Positions 576 through 10,485 of a stretch of 23,789 bases of DNA are shown here, one piece after another. The notes below the pieces were generated by a model that was not told where the DNA came from, ran no database searches, and worked only from the letters and a program-made list of their open reading frames with translations. The position numbers were made by a program, and so were the translations under genes. This DNA comes from a virus: UHGV virus genome UHGV-1460385, one strand, 5' to 3'. Numbering within the stretch: position 1 is the first letter of the stretch; each line of letters starts with the position of its first letter.

Positions 576-3263
576 CTATTCCACAACATCATCTTCTATC
601 AATTCAGCCTTATTTAGTTGTTCCTTAAGCTTATTCCATGCAGAATCCTCAGGCATCTGTACTCGCACAGAAACGAATTGATTAGCAGGAATGTCGATCG
701 GGTCACCGTTCGAAACACCAGGGATGTCGTTACGTGCAAAAACGGGCGAGTTATCATGAGTGCGGTGAAACGTTTTCACCAACACAGATCCATCTTGGTT
801 AACAACATAATCCAGCCAGATGAGCGGCTGCTTGTTTCGGTCCTGCGGTATTTCAAATCCACCATCAATCCCCCCCCATGAAGCATCTGCATTCAGACCT
901 ACGCAACCCTCAATCAGATATTCACCCAATGCCAGCCGTGTGACGGTTACCCCATCTGATTCGCGATTTGTTTCACTACTACCGTCTGAGAAAATCTTCA
1001 CAACCGGAGAGGCTTTTTTGATGAAACCACTTGAATCGACGGTCGTGTTCAGCGACGACCATGCCTCAGCCCAGCCTGTGTTACCTGCGCGAATAGCATC
1101 GTCTGCGTAGCGGAAGAACAGTTTTGATGTTGTGGACATGAATATCTGCAACACACGGTTTTTTGCATATCCTGACTCCCATAATGCTCCGTTACCTGTT
1201 CCTTCTGGCTGCCAGTTTGTCACCCCACCTGCAGCTCCTATACTTACACCAGTAGACCAGTCTCCAGCAAATTCTGGAAGATTTAGTGAGTTAGGTGAGC
1301 GAATTGATACATCAACCAGACCAGGGGATCCGAGAATCGACATGCTGCGGGAGGACACCTTAGTAAAAGAGTTGTACCCGCCGTTTTTGGAAATCCTTCC
1401 TGTATAATTATTAGCCCTGTTAGTTCCATTAACTGTAATTTCCCAGGTATCGCCGTTGATGAAGTCGATCTGCAATAGGCAGAATGCTGGCAGCGTCATC
1501 TGTCCTGGCGCAGATGGCCCACCTTCAAACAGTGGCATATCCTGTTCAAGATATGTCACATATCTACCTGCATCTGTATTCCGCAAATAGTCACAAATAG
1601 CCTGTGCCGATGTAAATAGCGCAATACCATCAGCCGGGTTTACAGGGTGACGGCCAGCGTTAATCACCCTTCCGCGAGGGTTAAATAACTGTGATGAGGC
1701 ATTGGATAGCGGAGTCATGTCTACTGTTCCAGGTTCATTAGATGGACAGTTAGCGCGAATGATGTTTAAAGTCCTATAATTTGATCCGCCCCCATTGTCA
1801 TAGCGAATAGACTGTAGAAGATACAATTCCTCAGAGCCAGAAATATCACAAGACTGCACCCCCTCATTTTCAGTGGAGTAAACACTCTTCCCTGAATAAC
1901 TATCCCAGTATGTTTTGAAATCTGCAGGTGACAGCAGGTACTGACCTAATTCTGAACCATTAAGGCTGTACTCAATATAACCCTGCAACCCTGCGAAAGT
2001 ATTTCCAGATCCCGCCGTGGTAGATGCACCAATACCAGCAAATATCCGTTGAGAACCAAGAGCGACACCCTGCCGTTTTGGTTTACCGGCTCCGCGACCT
2101 CCAACATTTGCATCAACCGTAATAGTCCCCATTGGACTGTAAGATCCTTCTATAAGGCTGTTAATATCCAGTGTGTTAAAGATATTGGATACACCTGTCT
2201 CAACATCAAAAATTTTCGGCCAACCCATATCCGCATTTTCGTATATCAGGGTATTACCAAAGCCACTAAACTGATATCGCACTCCAAGGCGTGTTGATTC
2301 AGTGAAGTTTGTAATCTGCGTTTTATCAACCAGCGTACGCGGATCTTCGATAGGGTAAATTCTGATAGTGCGAGATGGGCTGTACGGCAGCAGGATGTAA
2401 CGCTGTCCTGCCACTCGGTAAACGTGGATGCCTTCTGGTGCACCAACGTTATTCGGAAAATGAAGACGTGTTACCAATGCTCCTGTTACCCAGTCATGCA
2501 CCGTAACCCATACCGATGCGGGGTCTAGCGTCTGCCAGCCGATGTATACCATTCCATCATTGCTGTCTATGTAAATCCCCTGAAATCCCATGGTCGTGTA
2601 ACCATACTGATCTTTAAGATCTGCGGTAATCTCATCGTCTATGATGCTGAATTCTAATTTCCAGTTCAGCGGCCTACGCGTACCACTGACATGCCTAGAA
2701 ATATGAGACAGGTAGCTTTTAACCCCGCCTGCGATAATGTATCTATGTTTGATCTCAGTAACAATTCCAGTTGCAACTGGAGTGCATTTATAGACGCCGC
2801 CGTTTATTCTAATAAAATTGGTTCCTGTTAGATTATCCCCAATGGCAACGTCTTTTCTACTATTCTTAAACGTCCCATTACCTAAGTCAGTAACAAGCAA
2901 TGCCCCTTCTACATATTTCAATGACTGATCAGGGTCATACTTCAGCACATTAGGAAAATAGAACTGCTGCGCACCATACGCATCATAAACAGCCATAGAG
3001 TGGCCTTGCACAGTTACGAACTTGGCAATCTGTCCGTTATATACCGGGTAACCAGCAGCGTTAATGATTATTGGTTGCGAAACAGGAACGTGAGAACCGT
3101 CTTCATTCTCCACATAGACCTGAATCTGGTTTTCTGGATTTACAGGATCAGTGTCAATTTTACCGATATAAATTTTGCCATTGGCTACGGCTTTAAAAGA
3201 ACGCGCCATAGTGAAGAGTTGCGAAGGCATCGATACGATCACATTGGCTGTAATGTCTCTCAT
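576..3263 (-). CDS. Tailspike / receptor-binding protein (895 aa): P22-type N-terminal head-binding domain fused to a large non-P22 C-terminal body
   Basis: Residues 1-110 ([40 protein letters not shown]...[12 protein letters not shown]...NVLKYDPDQ) closely match my recollection of the P22 gp9 head-binding domain. The remaining ~780 aa do not resemble the P22 endorhamnosidase body. Last gene of the late operon, after ant, as in P22. ATG at 3263 with GGAG 9 nt upstream; TAG stop at 576-578. Confidence 0.9.
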
Positions 3264-3385: not shown

Positions 3386-4315
3386 TTAAAGTTTAATTGA
3401 GTGGCACGCTCTATCACGTATCGCTGCGAATGAAGCTATCTCTTTAAGTGCCCAGCTTTGCTCAGCCATTAAATGGCGAAGTGCTTTTAGTTCAGCTCTT
3501 ACTGCTGAAACGTCATACCCCGCTTTTGTCAGAATATTGATTAGTTTATACGCCGGACTGCATTCAACGAGTGCGCTGCGGTCAAGAGCAACAGTATCAC
3601 CGCATTGCTGCCTGATAATGGCGTAAGGTGCATTTTCAGCAAACCATGAAATCGGGAAGTTAATATCCAGTTTTGGCGCTGGTAACTCTTCTTGTTTGCC
3701 AATGAACTCACCTTCAAGCGGAACGCGAGCAGCAAGTGACAGTGCTTCGGTAAACTGCTCCTCACTGATTTCTTTGTACGAACATCCAAAATGGGATTTC
3801 AGTGACGACCACATGGTGATCATCGCCTTAGCCTGTTTTTCTTTTGGCAGAGACTGACCGCGACTCATGACGAGTTGTTTAATGGCTTCCTGCTGTTCAG
3901 TGGTAATTTTACTCGGCAACGCCTTTTTAGCTTTGCGTGGGTTAACTACATGACCTTTAGTCCAGTACTCGTAGAGCACATCGTCACACTCTTCCTGATA
4001 CTGGATTACCTTGTCGCGGATTTCAGGGCGGACTTTGTTTGGACTGATGGTTTGCAGCCAGCCAGCAAGTTTGCGAAGTGCCAAACAAATAATCTCACGG
4101 CACTGTTCATCACCAGGAAGCTGCATTGTGATTTTCACAATGGAGGTTTTAAACCGTTGCTTTATTTTCGTAAACTGTGAAGCCCAATCCATACCCATAC
4201 CTTCAACGATAGGTTTCATTGGGGTGTACGGCTCACCGTTGTGATTGACGACATAAAGCTCTGCGCCGTGGAATGGTACATTGATAGTAGATACTGCTGT
4301 TGCTATACTTTTCAT
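3386..4315 (-). CDS. ant: Antirepressor Ant (P22_AR-type N- and C-terminal domains), 309 aa from ATG 4315
   Basis: Position immediately upstream of the tailspike and downstream of arc, as in P22 immI; size near P22 Ant (300 aa). N-terminal VPFHGAELYVVNHNGEPYTPMKPIVEGMGMDW...QLPGDEQ resembles the P22 antirepressor N-domain family as I recall it. The ORF-track start at 4381 is TTG; the first ATG (4315) has AGGAAA 7 nt upstream. Confidence 0.7.
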   Translation of the reverse strand: MKSIATAVSTINVPFHGAELYVVNHNGEPYTPMKPIVEGMGMDWASQFTKIKQRFKTSIVKITMQLPGDEQCREIICLALRKLAGWLQTISPNKVRPEIRDKVIQYQEECDDVLYEYWTKGHVVNPRKAKKALPSKITTEQQEAIKQLVMSRGQSLPKEKQAKAMITMWSSLKSHFGCSYKEISEEQFTEALSLAARVPLEGEFIGKQEELPAPKLDINFPISWFAENAPYAIIRQQCGDTVALDRSALVECSPAYKLINILTKAGYDVSAVRAELKALRHLMAEQSWALKEIASFAAIRDRACHSIKL

Positions 4316-4390
4316 GTCAATATTTCCTAAGACGATTTGTTGATACCGAAGCCCTGACTGTTCCAGCAGTTGGGGCTTCAACGTTTTTCC
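4316..4390 (+). ncRNA. sar: sar-type antisense RNA candidate (~73 nt) covering the ant ribosome-binding site
   Basis: Plus-strand promoter -35 TTGATA (4281-4286), 17-bp spacer, -10 TATACT (4304-4309) with TGc extension. Predicted start near 4316, directly opposite the ant start codon. Ends at a long hairpin (GAAGCCC..ACTG-ttccag-CAGT..GGGCTTC, 4348-4379) followed by ACGTTTTT. Matches the known P22 sar arrangement; transcript not demonstrated. Confidence 0.5.
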
Positions 4391-4647
4391 ACTTCATTTT
4401 GAATTTGCTTAAGTAGCATATTTGTCTCGTCAAGCCTCTTGTTAATACGGTCAAGGCTTTCTACTAAATCGTTATGTGCATGTGATACTTCGTAATTTGA
4501 GACTGATTTCTTTTCCTCTATCGTCTTTGTCAATCGTTCCCCTGATTGATACATATTGATTAGCGCTGTAAAAATCACAAGCAAGCAAACCACAATGATT
4601 GCGCCAGACAAAAATTGTAAAGAACGATCAAGCAATGACACCCTCAT
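4378..4647 (-). CDS. Hypothetical 89-aa protein with one N-terminal transmembrane helix and a charged coiled-coil tail, between arc and ant
   Basis: ATG at 4647 overlaps the arc stop (ATGA). Predicted TM segment LSGAIIVVCLLVIFTALI followed by a heptad-like charged region. No family recognised. Confidence 0.5.
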   Translation of the reverse strand: MRVSLLDRSLQFLSGAIIVVCLLVIFTALINMYQSGERLTKTIEEKKSVSNYEVSHAHNDLVESLDRINKRLDETNMLLKQIQNEVEKR

Positions 4648-4802
4648 ACCATTACCCCCTCCCTCTTCAGGCTGTCCAATACTCGCTTGTAAATCTCAGA
4701 GTTAACAGATCGCTCATTCTCTTTGGCTACCTTGCGCACCAAATCCAATACTTCTTTAGGCATCCGCAAATTAAACTGCGGCATTTTTCTTGCACCTTGC
4801 AT
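4644..4802 (-). CDS. arc: Arc repressor (ribbon-helix-helix), 52 aa; below the 60-aa cutoff so absent from the ORF track
   Basis: Translation by hand: MQGARKMPQFNLRMPKEVLDLVRKVAKENERSVNSEIYKRVLDSLKREGVMV. This matches the P22 Arc sequence as I recall it (MKGMSKMPQFNLRWPREVLDLVRKVAEENGRSVNSEIYQRVMESFKKEGRIGA). GGAG 5 nt upstream of the ATG; TGA stop at 4644-4646. Confidence 0.85.
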   Translation of the reverse strand: MQGARKMPQFNLRMPKEVLDLVRKVAKENERSVNSEIYKRVLDSLKREGVMV

Positions 4803-4818
4803 ACCCTCTCCCAATCAA

Positions 4819-4889: not shown

Positions 4890-5144
4890 ATGTCCAGAGA
4901 AGACCCACAATTTAAGTTGCGCCTTCCAGCAGAGTTAAAAGCAAAGTTAGACCAAAGGGCAAAAATGAATGGTCGGTCTATCAATTCTGAACTAGTTCAG
5001 ATCGTACAGAAGGCGTTATCTGAACCATCACCGATTGCAGGCTATCGAGACGAAGCTGAACGCTTGGCTGATCAGCAAGCAGAGCAGTTCAAGACTGTTG
5101 TGTTTGAGACACTTAAAAAGATTTATGGCAAGGATGATAAATAA
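4890..5144 (+). CDS. mnt: Mnt repressor (Arc/MetJ-family ribbon-helix-helix), 84 aa
   Basis: MSREDPQFKLRLPAELKAKLDQRAKMNGRSINSELVQIVQKALSEPSPIAGYRDEAERLADQQ... is near-colinear with the P22 Mnt sequence as I recall it (ARDDPHFNFRMPMEVREKLKFRAEANGRSMNSELLQIVQDALSKPSPVTGYRNDAERLADEQ...). Divergent from arc-ant across an operator. Confidence 0.85.
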   Translation: MSREDPQFKLRLPAELKAKLDQRAKMNGRSINSELVQIVQKALSEPSPIAGYRDEAERLADQQAEQFKTVVFETLKKIYGKDDK

Positions 5145-5680
5145 TGCTGCACACAATTCATTTCTTATGCCCCGTTAACACCGCCACTGTTGGGCAACTT
5201 CAGAACCACTGTCTCACCGCATTATCTCAAGGCGCAACTGAATTAAATATCCATATATCAAGTCAGGGAGGGGAAACAGCCGCTGGCTTTACTGCGTATA
5301 ACTTTCTTAAGTCACTCCCTGTTACCGTTAGAACTCACAACATAAGCAATGTTGAATCCATAGCTAATATCGTTTTCCTGGCTGGCTCAGAACGTTTCGC
5401 AAACCCATTATCAAGATTCCTGTTACATCCTCTATTATGGTGCTTTGCCTCCCCAGCCGCCGACCATGCCAGATTGAGAGAGTACGGGAAATGCCTCGAT
5501 AACGATCTTGATCGCTTCGTTGAGACGTTCAATATCGACATCGGAACCCATATTAGGTGGGCATCCCTGATAGCAGACTCGACCATTTTGGATGCTAACA
5601 AGGCTCTTGAGCATGGCATAATTAATTCCATAAAAACTGCAAGGCTGGTATCCAATCAGGCAAACTGGTGGGTTGTTTGA
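5144..5680 (+). CDS. Truncated ClpP-family (S14-like) serine protease, 178 aa, translationally coupled to mnt
   Basis: Start ATG overlaps the mnt TAA (TAATG). By-eye alignment to E. coli ClpP: NIHISSQGGETAAG vs YINSPGGVITAG; SNVESIANIVFLAG vs GQAASMGAFLLTAG (Ser); RFLLHPL vs RVMIHQPL (His); ILDANKALEHGII vs FLSAPEAVEYGLV with an upstream Asp. Ser-His-Asp spacing matches. The ~25 N-terminal residues of ClpP are absent. Confidence 0.75.
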   Translation: MLHTIHFLCPVNTATVGQLQNHCLTALSQGATELNIHISSQGGETAAGFTAYNFLKSLPVTVRTHNISNVESIANIVFLAGSERFANPLSRFLLHPLLWCFASPAADHARLREYGKCLDNDLDRFVETFNIDIGTHIRWASLIADSTILDANKALEHGIINSIKTARLVSNQANWWVV

Positions 5681-5704
5681 TGGGTAAATCATGAATACTC
5701 CTTA

Positions 5705-5730
5705 TAAAAAACCCGCGATTAAGCGGGTTT
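5705..5730. terminator. Bidirectional intrinsic terminator between the convergent ClpP-like gene and the minus-strand antirepressor operon
   Basis: AAAAAA-CCCGC-GATTAA-GCGGG-TTT. Strong U-run for the minus-strand transcript, weaker (TTT) for the plus-strand one. Confidence 0.7.
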
Positions 5731-5736
5731 AGTTGG

Positions 5737-5958
5737 TTAGTTATCAAAAAGTCCGTACGTTTCTTCTTCTTCAGGTGTAAGGGGAAGAATCTCTACTCTA
5801 TCTATAGATACCTTTTCAATGTACCCATGAGGTCTACTTAAAATTAAAGCTCTCTCATGCCACAGAACTCCAAGAATGTGATACCTCCCAGCATCGCCTT
5901 TTACCCTGGCTCTTCCTTTGATTCTTGGCGGCATAATGCCATATTTTTTCTTTGCCAT
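5737..5958 (-). CDS. Hypothetical 73-aa protein, last gene of the minus-strand antirepressor operon
   Basis: ATG at 5958 overlaps the upstream TAA (TAATG); basic N-terminus, acidic C-terminus; followed by the terminator at 5705-5730. No family recognised. Confidence 0.45.
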   Translation of the reverse strand: MAKKKYGIMPPRIKGRARVKGDAGRYHILGVLWHERALILSRPHGYIEKVSIDRVEILPLTPEEEETYGLFDN

Positions 5959-6686
5959 TATGCAACATTACTCCCATGAATCAGGTGTTGTAGAGCTTTA
6001 ACACCTTCCGCATTGTAGCGGAATGCTTCCACCTGTTTGCTGGAATGTGCAGATTTATCCAGGAAGAACTTCCCGTACTGCTCAGTTTTGAGGTTGTTTG
6101 CGTTAGCAATGCGACCAATCTTGTTGGCCGTTACTCCAAGCTGCTCTGCAACCTCCCCTGCTGAGTAGTAATGCTCTTCTATTGCTGGAAGAGGTATTGC
6201 ATTAAAACCAACGATCGGGTTGATTATGCTTGCTGCCGCAGTCTGCTTTGCTTCCGGCGCAAGATTTGGCATCAAATCGAACAGATTGGTAACAGCTTCA
6301 ACCGTCATTTTCAATGTTCGCGCCTGGCGATACTCAACAAGTCCACTCGACGATTTACCGCTTTTAATGTGCGCTTCTTGCATACTTTCAAGTTGGTCTA
6401 CAAGTGAGCGGCGAACAGCTTTAGATTCACGAGCAGCCACTCGAAGGGCTTGCTTAATTGACATAACAACTTTTTCAGAAGTTGTCTTGTTTGATTTTTG
6501 AACTACGAAAATTTCGTAGTGCTCACCTTCAAGTTCATCCTTAATGCGTGCAATAAAGTCGTTATTTCGGACTTCTTTTTCCCCGCACTGTCTACGAGCA
6601 TGATTGACCATCTCTAACAGGTACTGGCTATCAATGGTTTTATCCGTGACAACGGATCCGATGTTTGCTACATTCTTAAAAGTCAT
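5958..6686 (-). CDS. Rha-like N-domain plus KilA-C-like C-domain protein (antirepressor-family regulator), 242 aa from ATG 6686
   Basis: N-terminal TIDSQYLLEMVNHARRQCGEKEVRNNDFIARIKDEL...HYEIFVVQKS resembles the Rha family. C-terminal YSAGEVAEQLGVTANKIGRIANANNLKTEQYGKFFLDKS resembles KilA-C-type antirepressor C-domains. AAGGA 7 nt upstream of ATG 6686; the track start at 6737 is GTG and would run through a terminator hairpin. Confidence 0.65.
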   Translation of the reverse strand: MTFKNVANIGSVVTDKTIDSQYLLEMVNHARRQCGEKEVRNNDFIARIKDELEGEHYEIFVVQKSNKTTSEKVVMSIKQALRVAARESKAVRRSLVDQLESMQEAHIKSGKSSSGLVEYRQARTLKMTVEAVTNLFDLMPNLAPEAKQTAAASIINPIVGFNAIPLPAIEEHYYSAGEVAEQLGVTANKIGRIANANNLKTEQYGKFFLDKSAHSSKQVEAFRYNAEGVKALQHLIHGSNVA

Positions 6687-6724
6687 TAGGCATTCCTTAT
6701 GTGGTAGTAAGGGTGTGACATAGG

Positions 6725-6755
6725 CCGCCAGCAGCACACTGGCGGTTTTCTTTTT
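6725..6755 (+). terminator. Orphan plus-strand intrinsic terminator in the Bro-N / Rha-like intercistronic gap
   Basis: CCGCCAG-cagcaca-CTGGCGG followed by TTTTCTTTTT. Canonical geometry. There is no annotated plus-strand gene upstream, so it would terminate an antisense transcript. Confidence 0.6.
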
Positions 6756-6774
6756 GCGCAGTCCGGCGCACCAA

Positions 6775-7401
6775 TCAATGAATCCATTCCTCGCCGCGAA
6801 GTTTTGCCAGCATTGGCTGAGCGTTCTTTACGACAAAATTGTTGGTATCAAGATTCTTCATTTCACGAAGAAGTGATTTCTTGGTTTCTTCTGACATGTA
6901 GCGAGTCTCATATGCAATATCGTAAATCCTTCCTGAAAGCTCAGAACCAATTTGCTTCATTCCTGGGTAGATGTGTTTGCACATTTGTTGACTCTTCTCC
7001 ATCCACAATTGTAAGTAGCAGAGATTAACCAGTTCTTCGTCAGTAAACTGTTTTGCAATCGGTGAGCATTCTGCCTGCCGATCCAAAATATCCAGCACCC
7101 AGCGGCGGAACTCTTTGGCTACCGGAGTGCGAGCAAACATCGCGATTAGGTGGGCACCGCGTAGTGAGAAAACTCGCACTTTTTTGCGATAATTTCCTGA
7201 GGTACTCACTTCGAGTACCTGAGTCATTCCGGCGCTAAACTCATCGCTATACTTGTTATAAATCATTGTTACTGCACGACTATTTGCGTATTTAAGTGCA
7301 GATGCAATATTAGATGATGTAAACCAAACACCATGCATATCACGGGTGGGCACCAACTCAACTCCGTGGAAGTTGTAATCTGATTTTGCTACAATATTCA
7401 T
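6775..7401 (-). CDS. Bro-N domain antirepressor-like protein, 208 aa from ATG 7401
   Basis: NFHGVELVPTRDMHGVWFTSSNIASALKYANSRAVTMIYNKY...KKVRVFSLRGAHLIAMFARTPVAKEFRRWVLDIL fits the Bro-N prophage antirepressor pattern. AGGAAA 6 nt upstream of ATG 7401; the track start at 7506 is TTG. Confidence 0.8.
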   Translation of the reverse strand: MNIVAKSDYNFHGVELVPTRDMHGVWFTSSNIASALKYANSRAVTMIYNKYSDEFSAGMTQVLEVSTSGNYRKKVRVFSLRGAHLIAMFARTPVAKEFRRWVLDILDRQAECSPIAKQFTDEELVNLCYLQLWMEKSQQMCKHIYPGMKQIGSELSGRIYDIAYETRYMSEETKKSLLREMKNLDTNNFVVKNAQPMLAKLRGEEWIH

Positions 7402-7476
7402 GTTAGTTTCCTTGCATACGGTTACTGACATAGAGGCCCGGTTTGTGTTCGCGCACTGCCGGGCTTCACTATTTTT
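7402..7476 (+). ncRNA. Second sar-like antisense RNA candidate, opposite the Bro-N gene start
   Basis: Extended -10 TGcTACAAT at 7387-7395 on the plus strand, ending 3 nt before the complement of the Bro-N ATG (same geometry as at ant). Hairpin GCCCGG..CCGGGC (7436-7464) followed by U-rich TTCACTATTTTTATT. Weak -35, and the U-tract is interrupted. Confidence 0.35.
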
Positions 7477-7648
7477 ATTGGATGACAACATCGCCCTTTG
7501 CCTCAAGTTTCATCAATAACTCCATTCGATAAGCTATCTCTGCCTGAATTGACCTATGGCATCTTTTTGCTGATTCGCGGATATGTGAATCAACCTTTTC
7601 TGTAAAACGAACCTGACGCGGCTTGATGGAAGATATCTTTTCAGTCAT
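7475..7648 (-). CDS. Arc-like ribbon-helix-helix regulator, 57 aa; absent from the ORF track
   Basis: Translation by hand: MTEKISSIKPRQVRFTEKVDSHIRESAKRCHRSIQAEIAYRMELLMKLEAKGDVVIQ. Pattern of beta-strand (RQVRFTEKV) then two helices with RS-I-EI motif is typical of Arc/CopG. GGAG 6 nt upstream of ATG 7648; TAA at 7475-7477. Confidence 0.7.
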   Translation of the reverse strand: MTEKISSIKPRQVRFTEKVDSHIRESAKRCHRSIQAEIAYRMELLMKLEAKGDVVIQ

Positions 7649-7697
7649 TATGCACTCCTGTTTTTAAAAAACTCATAATCTCACTTTTTGTAGTTTG

Positions 7698-7726
7698 ATT
7701 ATTCACTCACACTCAGCATGAGTCAA
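7698..7726 (-). promoter_or_regulatory. Pant-like promoter for the Arc-like / Bro-N operon
   Basis: Minus strand -35 TTGACT (7726-7721), 17-bp spacer containing tandem CACTCA repeats, -10 AATAAT (7703-7698). Confidence 0.4.
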
Positions 7727-7747
7727 TGAATTTTTTATGGTGAACTA

Positions 7748-8389
7748 ATGAATTTTGACGATCAATTCCCATCAAGAGTATCTCTGGCAAGACAGTCCAG
7801 GGGTATGACGCAGGCGCAGTTGTCAAAATTAGCTGGTGTTGTTCAACGTCAAATAGCTGCATACGAGGGTGGTGAGGCTAAACCACGGCTTCGGGTATTG
7901 CAGGCATTAGCCAACGCATTAGGTACTACAGCTGAGTGGTTAGCTCTAGGTGAAGGTCAGGGTCCGGGAACAAAAAACGTCATGCCTGACGTTCTGGTAA
8001 AGCAAATACCAATCCTCAAACTAGATGAAGTTATGCATTACCTAAACACAGGTGAACATTCATCGTCTAGATTTCATCCGGCAATATACAATGTTGGTGA
8101 CTCTGCATTTGCATTGACTATTGAAGGTGAAGCTATGACTACAAGTTCAGGTATTAGCTTTCCCAGAGGATCGGTTGTCACGTTCAGCCCTCTAGTAAAA
8201 GCTAAAAGCAAAGATTATGTAATAGCATCATTGGATAAAGAGCAAATATTGAGCTTCAAACAGGTTTACATTGGTGAAATAGAGACAAACCTAGTATCCC
8301 TAAACCCAATGTATCCTAATATTCTTGTTAGAAATGAAGATGTTAGTATTTTGGCAACCGCAGTTTACCTTGAAATCCCGTTGCTTTGA
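7748..8389 (+). CDS. Lambda-CI/LexA-fold repressor (HTH plus S24-like C-domain) with Ala at the nucleophile position
   Basis: N-terminal Cro/C1-type HTH (MTQAQLSKLAGVVQRQIAAYEGGEAKP). C-domain aligns with lambda CI: FALTIEGEAM vs FWLDVQGDSM (Ser to Ala, codon GCT), LSFKQV vs ATFKKL (Lys kept), LNPMYPNI vs LNPQYPMI. Confidence 0.85.
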   Translation: MNFDDQFPSRVSLARQSRGMTQAQLSKLAGVVQRQIAAYEGGEAKPRLRVLQALANALGTTAEWLALGEGQGPGTKNVMPDVLVKQIPILKLDEVMHYLNTGEHSSSRFHPAIYNVGDSAFALTIEGEAMTTSSGISFPRGSVVTFSPLVKAKSKDYVIASLDKEQILSFKQVYIGEIETNLVSLNPMYPNILVRNEDVSILATAVYLEIPLL

Positions 8390-8655: not shown

Positions 8656-10485
8656 TCACTGCTGTGTTGCCTCAGTGGCAAGCAGCGGTCTGATGGCATT
8701 TGCAGCGTTACTTAATGCTCTTTCATAGGCTGGCGTTCCTGCTTTGGTGTTTGCCAAACGTAAGAGAGCATTCCTTGCTGCTTTTGACTCATACAAGCGC
8801 ATCATTGCACCGAAACCAGCCTCAAGCCCCATTGATACGCCAAGAGTCGCAGTTGCGCCAATCGTCCTTATCCTGTTGGCTTGCGATTGTCCTGTCTGTG
8901 TTACTACATTTGCGGCGTCCGACCTTGCTGTTTGCTGTAGAACTTCATGAAGAGCATCAAGCTCTTTCATGTGTCTCCCACTGAATATCGTGTTATAGAT
9001 CTGACCGTCAGATTGCGACTTCAACTTATTTAACTCGGTAAGAAATTTTGTTGGCGAGTCTCCTGCTTTTTCTGCAATCTTGCTGATATAAGCAGCACGC
9101 ATAGCGTTCTTTCCATCTTCACTAAGAGCTGGCCATATCCTCTTAATATCTGATGGTTTTCTGCTGAATACAACACTGTTTATTAGCTCTGGAGTAAACT
9201 CTTTTTTAGCTTTGTTGAGATTATTCGCAATCCTTTTATTAAGAACCTTATTGAAGACGTTAGAGTAGTCAGAGTTTGCCTTGACGTATCTGGCGGCCTC
9301 TCCAGCCCCCAAATACCGCGCTGCGTTATTCCTCAAATCTGCCCCCATTGCCCTCTCCACGGTATCAGTTGCGGCTTTCGCGCTATTAGGAAAAACCATG
9401 GCATCTCCCTGAATACTTTCCCTCAAGGCTGACCGCAACTCTCTCAATAGACCAAAATCTATATCTGGTTTAGCAAGTTCTTCTCGCAAATCGGATAACC
9501 CGCGAATCAAATCCTTATTTGCCACTTTCCCAAGCCTATTAGCTCTGGTAAGTACGTTGTCGATAACCTTAATAGATTTTGATGTGTCAACTGGTGTGTC
9601 TCCCATTTTGGCTGTAATGTCTTCAATAACGCTTCCGGCCGAATCCTTCCTTGACTTCAGAGAACCATACAGATCGTCAACAACAACTGATGGGCTATAT
9701 TCACCATATTTCTCAAGCTGTTTTTTAACTAGCTGACTTCTTTTTGCATACTGCTCAGCTCGCTTTGAGCCTGTCCCGAGCAAAGCCCCCTCGGCATCCT
9801 GAGTTAGGCCGCGAGTGAAAGCATTTTTCGGCGGGATAACATCAGATGTCATTGGTGTCACGCCCATCGATTCTGAGGTGGCAATTTTTTTCGCTACTTC
9901 TGGCGCGATATCGCCTTTTATAGCCGTTATTCCACGCCCTATTCCCTTTGCTGCTGCGGAAAGAACACCCTGAGCAGCAAGGTTAACTCCGGCGTTTATG
10001 GCTGCATTTTGCGCGAAATCGCCTTTCTGGTTTGCGGCTTCTGCCAGTGATCCAATAGCCATGCTTCCTGCAGTTCCAACTCCTGGAACTAAATACCCGC
10101 CAATTGTTTCTCCAGCTTGCGCATAAGGGTCTGTTGGTCGATCTACTGGACGATAGACATCGTCCAAAACCTTGTGACCACCAAGCCCCTGGCTGATTGC
10201 ATTAATCAGACTTGCGCCACCCTGCAATACGTCAAATGGTATGTTTACCAGACCACGACCAGCCTGTTCTGCAATTTGCCCTGCACTTTGACCACCAGTG
10301 AGCCAATCGCCAGCTTGTTGCATCAATGATGGTTCTTCCTGTGTTGGTGCATTATTGGCCTGATTAACTGTTTGTTGCTGAACAGCCTGACCAGCAAAAT
10401 ACTCATCAATGGCGGTGCCAATATCTTCGGTGCTCGTACCATCAGGAAAGGTAAATGTCTTACCGTTTGCAGTTACTTTCATCAT
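8656..10485 (-). CDS. 16: Ejection (internal virion) protein gp16, 609 aa
   Basis: Same length as P22 gp16 and N-terminus [16 protein letters not shown] as I recall it; last of the three ejection-protein genes. ATGA overlap with gp20. Confidence 0.9.

Follow-up and report, generated by a model that had tools for sequence, protein, structure and literature searches.

A predicted antisense unit at the start of a second antirepressor gene

The 23,789-nt stretch of the viral genome UHGV-1460385 that was analysed here (the window, at its full length) is the late region of a P22-like E. coli prophage. Its late genes, which encode terminase, portal, ejection proteins and tailspike, are on the minus strand, and positions 5900-7600 show 92% identity to Lederbergvirus JEP4. 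Between the gene for a 609-amino-acid (aa) homologue of the ejection protein gp16 (8656-10485) and the tailspike gene (576-3263) lies an enlarged "ant moron", which is an immI-like region made up of two modules, A and B. Our subject is a plus-strand element of this region at 6646-6755, consisting of a promoter-like sequence and a terminator-like hairpin and facing the start of a minus-strand gene that we call the target. A preliminary description had reported GTGACA, a 17-bp interval and TGcTACATT inside the beginning of this gene, followed by a hairpin with a T-tail between two minus-strand genes. Both elements were found in place (6646-6674 and 6725-6755, plus strand), and the flanking genes do run on the minus strand, the upstream one ending with a stop codon at 6777-6775 and the target starting with ATG at 6686-6684. 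The features concerned are as follows.

6646-6651, plus strand: -35 hexamer GTGACA, within target codons 12-14
6666-6674, plus strand: extended -10 element, TGc at 6666-6668 (TG at 6666-6667) and hexamer TACATT at 6669-6674, within target codons 5-7
6681-6755, plus strand: predicted antisense RNA of 72-76 nt, with its predicted +1 an A at 6681
6682-6719, plus strand: 5' stem-loop of the predicted RNA (RNAfold), closed at its base by GUC 6682-6684 paired with GAC 6717-6719
6722-6755, plus strand: intrinsic terminator with the core CCGCCAG 6725-6731, loop CAGCACA 6732-6738 and CTGGCGG 6739-6745
6698-6684, minus strand: target translation-initiation region, with the Shine-Dalgarno sequence (SD) AAGGAA at 6698-6693 and the ATG, the full complement of the 5' part of the predicted RNA
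5958-6686, minus strand: target gene, a 242-aa PHROG 1726 "anti-repressor" and the second antirepressor cistron of module B
6775-7401, minus strand: upstream cistron of module B, an antirepressor with Bro-N and P22AR_C domains

We refer to the element as unit 2, since it is the second of three along the window. Its promoter matches the sigma-70 consensus at 9 of 12 positions and has the TG in addition; with a spacer of 17 bp it conforms to the extended -10 pattern (TGn followed by TAnnnT, with a -35 at 16-18 bp). The predicted +1 is 7 nt past the -10, an offset equal to that annotated for P22 sar, and falls on the third position of target codon 2. On the plus strand the hairpin has the make-up of an intrinsic terminator, namely a GC-rich stem-loop and then a U-tract: the stem of 7-10 bp can be extended to 6722-6748 through G·U and A-U pairs, and the T-tract TTTTCTTTTT follows directly at 6746-6755. 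Folding of the predicted RNA (6681 to ~6755) gives the 5' stem-loop and the terminator at -25.1 kcal/mol (reverse complement, -19.5 kcal/mol), and the stem-loop carries an anti-SD, UUCCUU (6693-6698), along with the complement of the start codon. The sole plus-strand open reading frame (ORF) nearby encodes 40 aa from a TTG start at 6754-6876 and overlaps the upstream gene.

Conservation of the putative embedded promoter

For comparison we used 80 homologous loci from viral contigs and 11 from species-level genomes, as well as annotated phage and E. coli records. This set covers Escherichia, Klebsiella, Citrobacter, Buttiauxella, Erwinia, Pantoea, Kluyvera and Dryocola, with protein identity down to 57%. 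Every one of the 87 loci with the same N-terminal architecture retains GTGACA, a spacer of exactly 17 bp and TGnTA[C/A]A[T/G]T, the last in the variants TGnTACATT, TGnTAAATT and TGnTAAAGT; the sequences of the spacer and of the loop differ among the homologues.

The promoter lies within codons, and we therefore compared 40 unique gene starts at synonymous positions. The -35 is invariant across all of them, including both codon third positions that it covers. Among codons 2-30, invariant third positions occur at codons 2, 5, 6, 7, 12, 13 and 16. Those of codons 2, 5, 6, 7, 12 and 13 coincide with the +1, the -10, the TG and the -35, and among the remaining 22 third positions that of K16 alone is invariant, the others having entropies of 0.4-1.8 bits. 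The probability of such a coincidence is ~2e-5 (hypergeometric, calculated by hand from the counts). Third-position diversity is 0.22 over codons 2-14 and 0.42-0.43 deeper in the gene. Amino acid replacements follow the same rule: codon 7 varies between A, S and T (GCA, TCA and ACA), codon 6 between V and L (GTA and TTA) and codon 12 between V, S, I and A (GTT, TCT, ATT and GCT), with the promoter bases retained each time; the A/S/T and V/L changes preserve the TG and the first T of the -10 hexamer. The target is a clear example of a gene whose synonymous sites, and even whose amino acids, are constrained by a promoter lying within it.

Conservation of the terminator and its linkage to the promoter

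In an alignment of 27 distinct homologous RNAs the 10-bp helix of the terminator is paired in 98.1% of cells. Compensatory changes affect four helix pairs, a result equalled by none of 500 shuffles and by far not approached by slid controls; they comprise G-C to A-U in one locus (L088), C-G to G·U in another (L083) and two pairs each in L090 and L091. The two basal pairs of the stem are G·U in 16-18 of the 27 sequences and would turn into C·A mismatches in the sense RNA, and the same applies to a G·U in the stem core of L083. The stem is followed by a T-tract in each of the 27 aligned homologues, whose upstream genes are of at least four unrelated kinds, and none has a T-tract on the opposite flank. 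Because these G·U pairs and the one-sided T-tract are strand-specific, the alignment indicates that the hairpin is selected as a plus-strand terminator.

The same hairpin might instead serve the sense mRNA, with no plus-strand RNA being made: it could stabilise the 3' end of the upstream cistron, mark a processing site or attenuate weakly between the two antirepressor genes. Its minus-strand stem is equally stable (-14.8 kcal/mol) and stands ~27 nt past the upstream stop codon. The C·A mismatches that the basal pairs, and the core pair of L083, would form on the sense RNA speak against this, as does the conserved T-tract, which a sense terminator would need on the other side; the operon has its sense terminator at 5703-5730. 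Nor does this explanation account for conservation of the promoter, and we regard it as highly improbable.

Beyond the terminator stem, the shape with two hairpins is kept in all 8 diverged homologues tested, with a different inner sequence and z scores of -2.8 to -4.6 (RNAfold), and in several diverged homologues the anti-SD occupies the apical loop, as it does in sar. A covariance model built from the unit 2 homologues, R1, scores 85.5 bits at 6681-6757. The downstream antirepressor of phage SPN3UB has a different and longer N-terminus but retains TCGACA-17-TGcTACATT and the same terminator, and this copy scores 48 bits with R1 even though it was outside the training set. In E. coli A41, a 281-nt query matched only over 6625-6753 (98.5% identity), in a setting where the upstream gene is another one and the downstream allele has diverged. 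Conversely, promoter and terminator are absent together: the antirepressors of Stx phages and the loci L076-L080 and L094 have a related gene body, with a sense promoter of their own and an upstream sense terminator, and lack both the antisense promoter and the plus-strand terminator. Of 5,426 complete E. coli genomes, 77 carry unit 2, never with an annotation as an RNA; it was likewise unannotated in the phage and RefSeq records that we inspected.

These linkages bear on a further explanation, in which the hairpin is a mere plus-strand terminator guarding against read-through from mnt and the ClpP-like gene (4890-5680) and the promoter match reflects coding constraint. Plus-strand genes do lie there, and the hairpin at 5709-5730 has a poor T-tail on the plus strand, so that read-through is conceivable. 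In A41 and WS4437A-1, however, every downstream neighbour gene is on the minus strand and therefore nothing else there needs a plus-strand terminator; these two, KP12 and SPN3UB keep it with no plus-strand gene downstream. A guard function also leaves unexplained the invariant synonymous sites at the -35, TG, -10 and +1, the fixed 17-bp spacing and the joint loss of promoter and terminator. We consider it very unlikely.

Two sister units and the relation to sar

The preliminary description called the element an orphan. This is misleading, as unit 2 is one of three sar-type units in the immI-like region, the other two being the following.

4281-4390, plus strand: unit 1, canonical sar, with its RNA at 4317-4383 (Rfam RF00262, 66.2 bits, E 6.4e-12)
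7387-7479, plus strand: unit 3, with its predicted RNA at ~7402-7479, opposite the start of the Bro-N/P22AR_C antirepressor

Unit 1 is opposite the start of the P22-type ant gene and has the promoter TTGATA-17-TGcTATACT (4281-4309). Its RNA is the sole match in the window that reaches the gathering threshold of RF00262 (43 bits). The sar terminator adjoins the stop codon of an 89-aa ORF that lies between arc and sar/ant, an arrangement unlike that of P22. Unit 3 occupies the 73-nt gap after the gene of a ribbon-helix-helix (RHH)-like protein and comprises TGcTACAAT (7387-7395), a 5' stem-loop (7402-7429) and a terminator (7433-7467) with a T-tract; its fold has a z score of -6.2. It remains below the Rfam sar threshold itself, but its homologues from Erwinia and SPN3UB loci exceed that threshold (L088, L089 and L005, 44-50 bits), from which we conclude that the Rfam model under-detects this branch.

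The design is common to all three: an extended -10 in codons 3-7 of the antirepressor gene, a predicted start at or beside the complement of the start codon, a 5' stem-loop with an anti-SD, and an intrinsic terminator just before the upstream stop codon. One such unit accompanies each antirepressor cistron (3 of 3 in the window) and none accompanies the RHH first cistron. Three copies of the motif TTGCTAYANT lie in the window (at 4300, 6665 and 7386), always on the plus strand, when 0.57 are expected; at least three were found in 4 of 100 shuffles. The earlier statement that unit 2 is the third to carry TTGCTAyAnT thus stands as to the number of occurrences and needs correction as to their nature, since the motif is the extended -10 of Psar-type promoters. 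Its imprint is visible in the proteins. The three antirepressor families are unrelated at the Pfam level and all begin with x-[I/V/L]-A (MKSIA, MTFKNVA and MNIVA); this common N-terminus arises because the nTA GCA codons supply the TGCTA of the antisense promoter (4301-4309, 6666-6674 and 7387-7395).

Searches with R1 did not permit a claim of shared descent between unit 2 and sar. In the window the model found unit 3 at 11.4 bits (E 0.84) and did not find sar. On the sequence comparison we regard unit 2 as a distinct RNA family with the architecture of sar; common descent with unit 3 is likewise unproven. Sub-threshold Rfam matches over 6500-7800 (Hrs13, SgrS and SymR) were rejected as chance look-alikes of the terminator. 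An antitoxin RNA of the SymR type (RF01809, threshold 61 bits) was also discarded: it matched unit 3 only, at 21.8 bits (E 0.23), a chance resemblance between hairpins.

R1 also matches 7643-7690, at the translation-initiation region of the RHH gene. This region, AACAGGAGTGCATAATGACT (7631-7650, minus strand), is identical to that of the target (6681-6700, minus strand) at 16 of 20 positions, which in principle might let the unit 2 RNA pair with it in trans. A conserved regulation of the RHH gene in trans by the unit 2 RNA was considered and dropped, the resemblance being 11-13 of 20 in 15 diverged loci, and it is probably coincidental or specific to this lineage.

Proposed mechanism and its weighing

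We propose, with a probability of about 75%, that 6646-6755 is the gene of a sar-type cis-antisense RNA that pairs with the initiation region of the second antirepressor and prevents its translation. What we observe are the sequence elements, the synonymous-site conservation, the covariation, the strand asymmetry and an architecture identical to that annotated for P22 Psar/sar. The preliminary description had already suggested an antisense promoter and an intrinsic terminator yielding a ~75-nt RNA over the ribosome-binding site and start codon. That suggestion gains support from the conserved synonymous sites and 17-bp spacer and from the covariation, and further from the strand-specific G·U pairs and T-tract, the joint loss of promoter and terminator and the P22 layout.

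In the mechanism envisaged, a sigma-70 extended -10 promoter in target codons 5-14 would fire on the opposite strand at ~6681. The transcript would cross the start codon, the SD and the whole intercistronic leader and end at 6722-6755, ~20 nt before the upstream stop codon. The resulting RNA of 72-76 nt would pair with the initiation region of antirepressor 2 and block 30S binding, and the RNA-mRNA duplex would probably create a substrate for RNase III. Antirepressor 2 would then remain unmade even while its own operon, or the Q-antiterminated late operon leading to the tailspike gene, is being transcribed. In P22, too, late transcripts traverse arc and ant on their way to the tailspike gene. 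Antirepressor cistrons in late-operon orientation may thus need a post-transcriptional lock, and their intercistronic hairpins must not terminate sense transcription. Because no U-tract follows the hairpin on the sense side, sense transcription could continue through it; the one-sided T-tract would therefore spare the sense transcript.

The promoter could also be real with a different main effect, namely transcriptional interference between convergent polymerases at the junction of the two antirepressor genes, the RNA being a by-product. The promoter does face the sense operon head-on, and conservation of promoter and terminator would suit any role that needs a start here and an early stop. 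The predicted transcribed segment, however, always spans exactly the SD and the start codon and ends before the upstream ORF. The 5' stem-loop, with its often apical anti-SD, is kept in diverged homologues, which is expected for pairing and needless for interference; sar, the architectural model, acts by base pairing with ant mRNA (review). We judge interference as the main effect to be unlikely.

Several points weigh against the proposal of a pairing antisense RNA. Promoter activity and strength, the ends of the RNA and translational repression are predictions from sequence, and no RNA-seq, mapping of transcription start sites or Northern blot was found, nor did the literature searched describe an RNA here. 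For an antirepressor function of the target, the PHROG label is the only support. Unit 2 fails RF00262, with no sar match in 6500-7800 even at E<=10; its homology to sar is unproven, and the likeness is one of architecture. Many of the loci collected are closely related and represent ~12-15 independent lineages. The energy of the hairpin is alike on both strands (-14.9 versus -14.8 kcal/mol) and does not distinguish them, and for this reason the strand assignment rests on the G·U pairs and the T-tract. Finally, neither promoter matches (14 in the window, 10.9 expected) nor terminator matches (10, with 5.2 expected) are significantly in excess.

Those last counts are also what favours a chance co-occurrence of promoter-like and terminator-like matches, which are common in an AT-rich region. 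It is the comparison of homologues that lends unit 2 its more-than-chance status: conservation and covariation extend across genera, and three units of the same design stand at three antirepressor starts. We consider chance to be effectively refuted.

Genes of the immI-like region

The remaining genes and signals of the region are as follows.

4890-5144, plus strand: mnt, module A
5144-5680, plus strand: ClpP-like gene (Pfam CLP_protease, E 2e-11), module A
4644-4814, minus strand: arc, module A
4378-4647: 89-aa ORF (PHROG 27312, function unknown), separating arc from sar/ant, module A
3386-4315, minus strand: P22_AR_N antirepressor (P22-type ant), start codon 4315-4313, module A
7748-8389, plus strand: divergent repressor with HTH_3 and Peptidase_S24 domains (cI/LexA-like), module B
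7698-7726, minus strand: candidate sense promoter TTGACT-17-AATAAT (10 of 12 consensus matches, inferred) of the operon of the RHH gene, both antirepressor genes and a 73-aa ORF
7475-7648, minus strand: 57-aa RHH-like first cistron in the position of arc (weak ParD_like match; PHROG 10182), module B
5703-5730, minus strand: intrinsic terminator in the sense direction, closing the operon; hairpin at 5709-5730, U-tract on the minus strand

Module A is P22-like and holds mnt, the ClpP-like gene, arc, the 89-aa ORF and the P22_AR_N antirepressor. Module B is composed of the repressor with helix-turn-helix and S24 domains, the RHH-like gene, the Bro-N/P22AR_C antirepressor, the PHROG 1726 gene, the 73-aa ORF and the sense terminator. 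We noted that the gene directly 3' of mnt, resembling serine proteases of the ClpP family, is an unusual passenger for an "ant moron". The HTH_3 and Peptidase_S24 domains of the divergent repressor suggest RecA-dependent self-cleavage and thereby SOS-inducible expression of the antirepressors; in other loci its position is taken by a gene of the LexA family or of the Mnt/Arc family. The hairpin AACCCGCGATTAAGCGGGTT (5703-5730) separates the convergent ClpP-like and 73-aa genes; its U-tracts differ, the minus-strand one being strong and the plus-strand one weak. The hairpin probably acts as sense terminator for the four-gene operon and is partly bidirectional.

The target had been described as Rha-like, an assignment that we could not uphold. 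Its product is not detectably Rha and belongs to the PHROG 1726 antirepressor family (E 2.4e-100). Against Pfam it gave no match at E<=0.01, and Phage_pRha (PF09669, the Rha family) was absent even at E<=10, where the sole match was a 13-bit HTH_31; neither NCBIfam nor PDB sequences provided a usable match. Annotation of these genes varies in public records. In JEP4 (L001), KP12 (L002) and SPN3UB (L005) the labels are inconsistent: "KilA protein" is the name given to the PHROG 1726 gene, and "Rha protein" that given to the Bro-N/P22AR_C gene. The Bro-N gene of KP12 and SPN3UB is annotated with a start that takes it across the sar-like RNA and into the RHH gene; this start probably lies too far upstream.

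Significance

Antirepressors decide between silence and induction of a prophage and mediate cross-talk among co-resident prophages. We tentatively raise the possibility that these units are portable "antisense locks", one per antirepressor cistron, which move between unrelated phages as self-contained cassettes and whose RNA determines the specificity of cross-immunity and of antirepressor-mediated cross-induction between prophages. The basis for this is the A41 match confined to 6625-6753 and the near identity of the target region across many prophages. If it were true, the diffusible RNA of a resident prophage could silence in trans the corresponding antirepressor of another phage, whether incoming or co-resident. 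A parallel for such a determinant of specificity is c4, which defines the heteroimmunity of P1 and P7.

Comparing P22-like "ant morons", the 2008 epsilon34 paper pointed out that those of the HS-1 and CUS-3 types from E. coli have putative antirepressor genes without arc, and concluded that their regulation must differ from that of P22. Our analysis suggests that modules of the HS-1/CUS-3 type use the P22 logic, with an RHH first cistron and one sar-type RNA per antirepressor cistron. Annotation pipelines miss the unit 2 family because Rfam does not detect it, and a practical outcome of this work would be a new family of the Rfam type and a directly testable regulator.

Comparison with known systems

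The OOP RNA of phage lambda resembles the predicted unit 2 RNA in being a cis-antisense phage RNA that is short (77 nt), has a promoter and an intrinsic terminator of its own and acts on a lysis-lysogeny regulator (review). It differs in overlapping the 3' end of cII and promoting RNase III-dependent decay, in covering no translation-initiation region and in having no link to an antirepressor. The c4 RNA is encoded upstream in its target's own transcript, is processed out and acts on complementary sites that are separate. Unlike the predicted unit 2 RNA, it does not arise as a convergent cis-antisense transcript from a promoter of its own within the gene that it controls. The likeness of c4 (P1/P7 immI) to unit 2 is that of a small RNA blocking ant synthesis by pairing near the ribosome-binding site (review).

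Closer in design are the divergent sar relatives opposite Bro-N antirepressors (unit 3 and those of SPN3UB, Erwinia and others), which share that of unit 2. Unit 3 also has the sequence ...TGACATAG(A)GGCC... just before the terminator in common with it.

The closest model is sar of P22 itself, an RNA that base-pairs with ant mRNA and thereby represses ant (review). In the GenBank record of P22, Psar is GTGTTA-17-TGcTATACT inside ant, the RNA starts 7 nt past the -10 and the terminator is at the end of the upstream gene. Psar matches the consensus at 8 of 12 positions by our own count (9 of 12 for the unit 2 promoter). There are differences. The terminator stem of sar is GAAGCCC.../...GGGCUUC and that of unit 2 CCGCCAG/CTGGCGG; the unit 2 RNA would additionally span the start codon and codon 2; the target is PHROG 1726 and not P22_AR_N, and the upstream cistron is an antirepressor and not arc. 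Whereas sar has been mapped experimentally, unit 2 is known here from sequence alone. The likenesses extend over the whole unit: a promoter within the first codons of an antirepressor gene and convergent with its target; an extended -10 of the form TTGCTAyAyT, a -35 beginning with GTG, a 17-bp spacer and a start ~7 nt past the -10; a length of ~70 nt (68-69 for sar, 72-76 predicted for unit 2) with two hairpins; complementarity to the intercistronic leader and ribosome-binding site; a unidirectional terminator adjoining the end of the upstream cistron; and a location within the "ant moron" of a P22-like late operon. On this comparison, what is new is an RNA family with a predicted sar mechanism, the underlying principle being already known.

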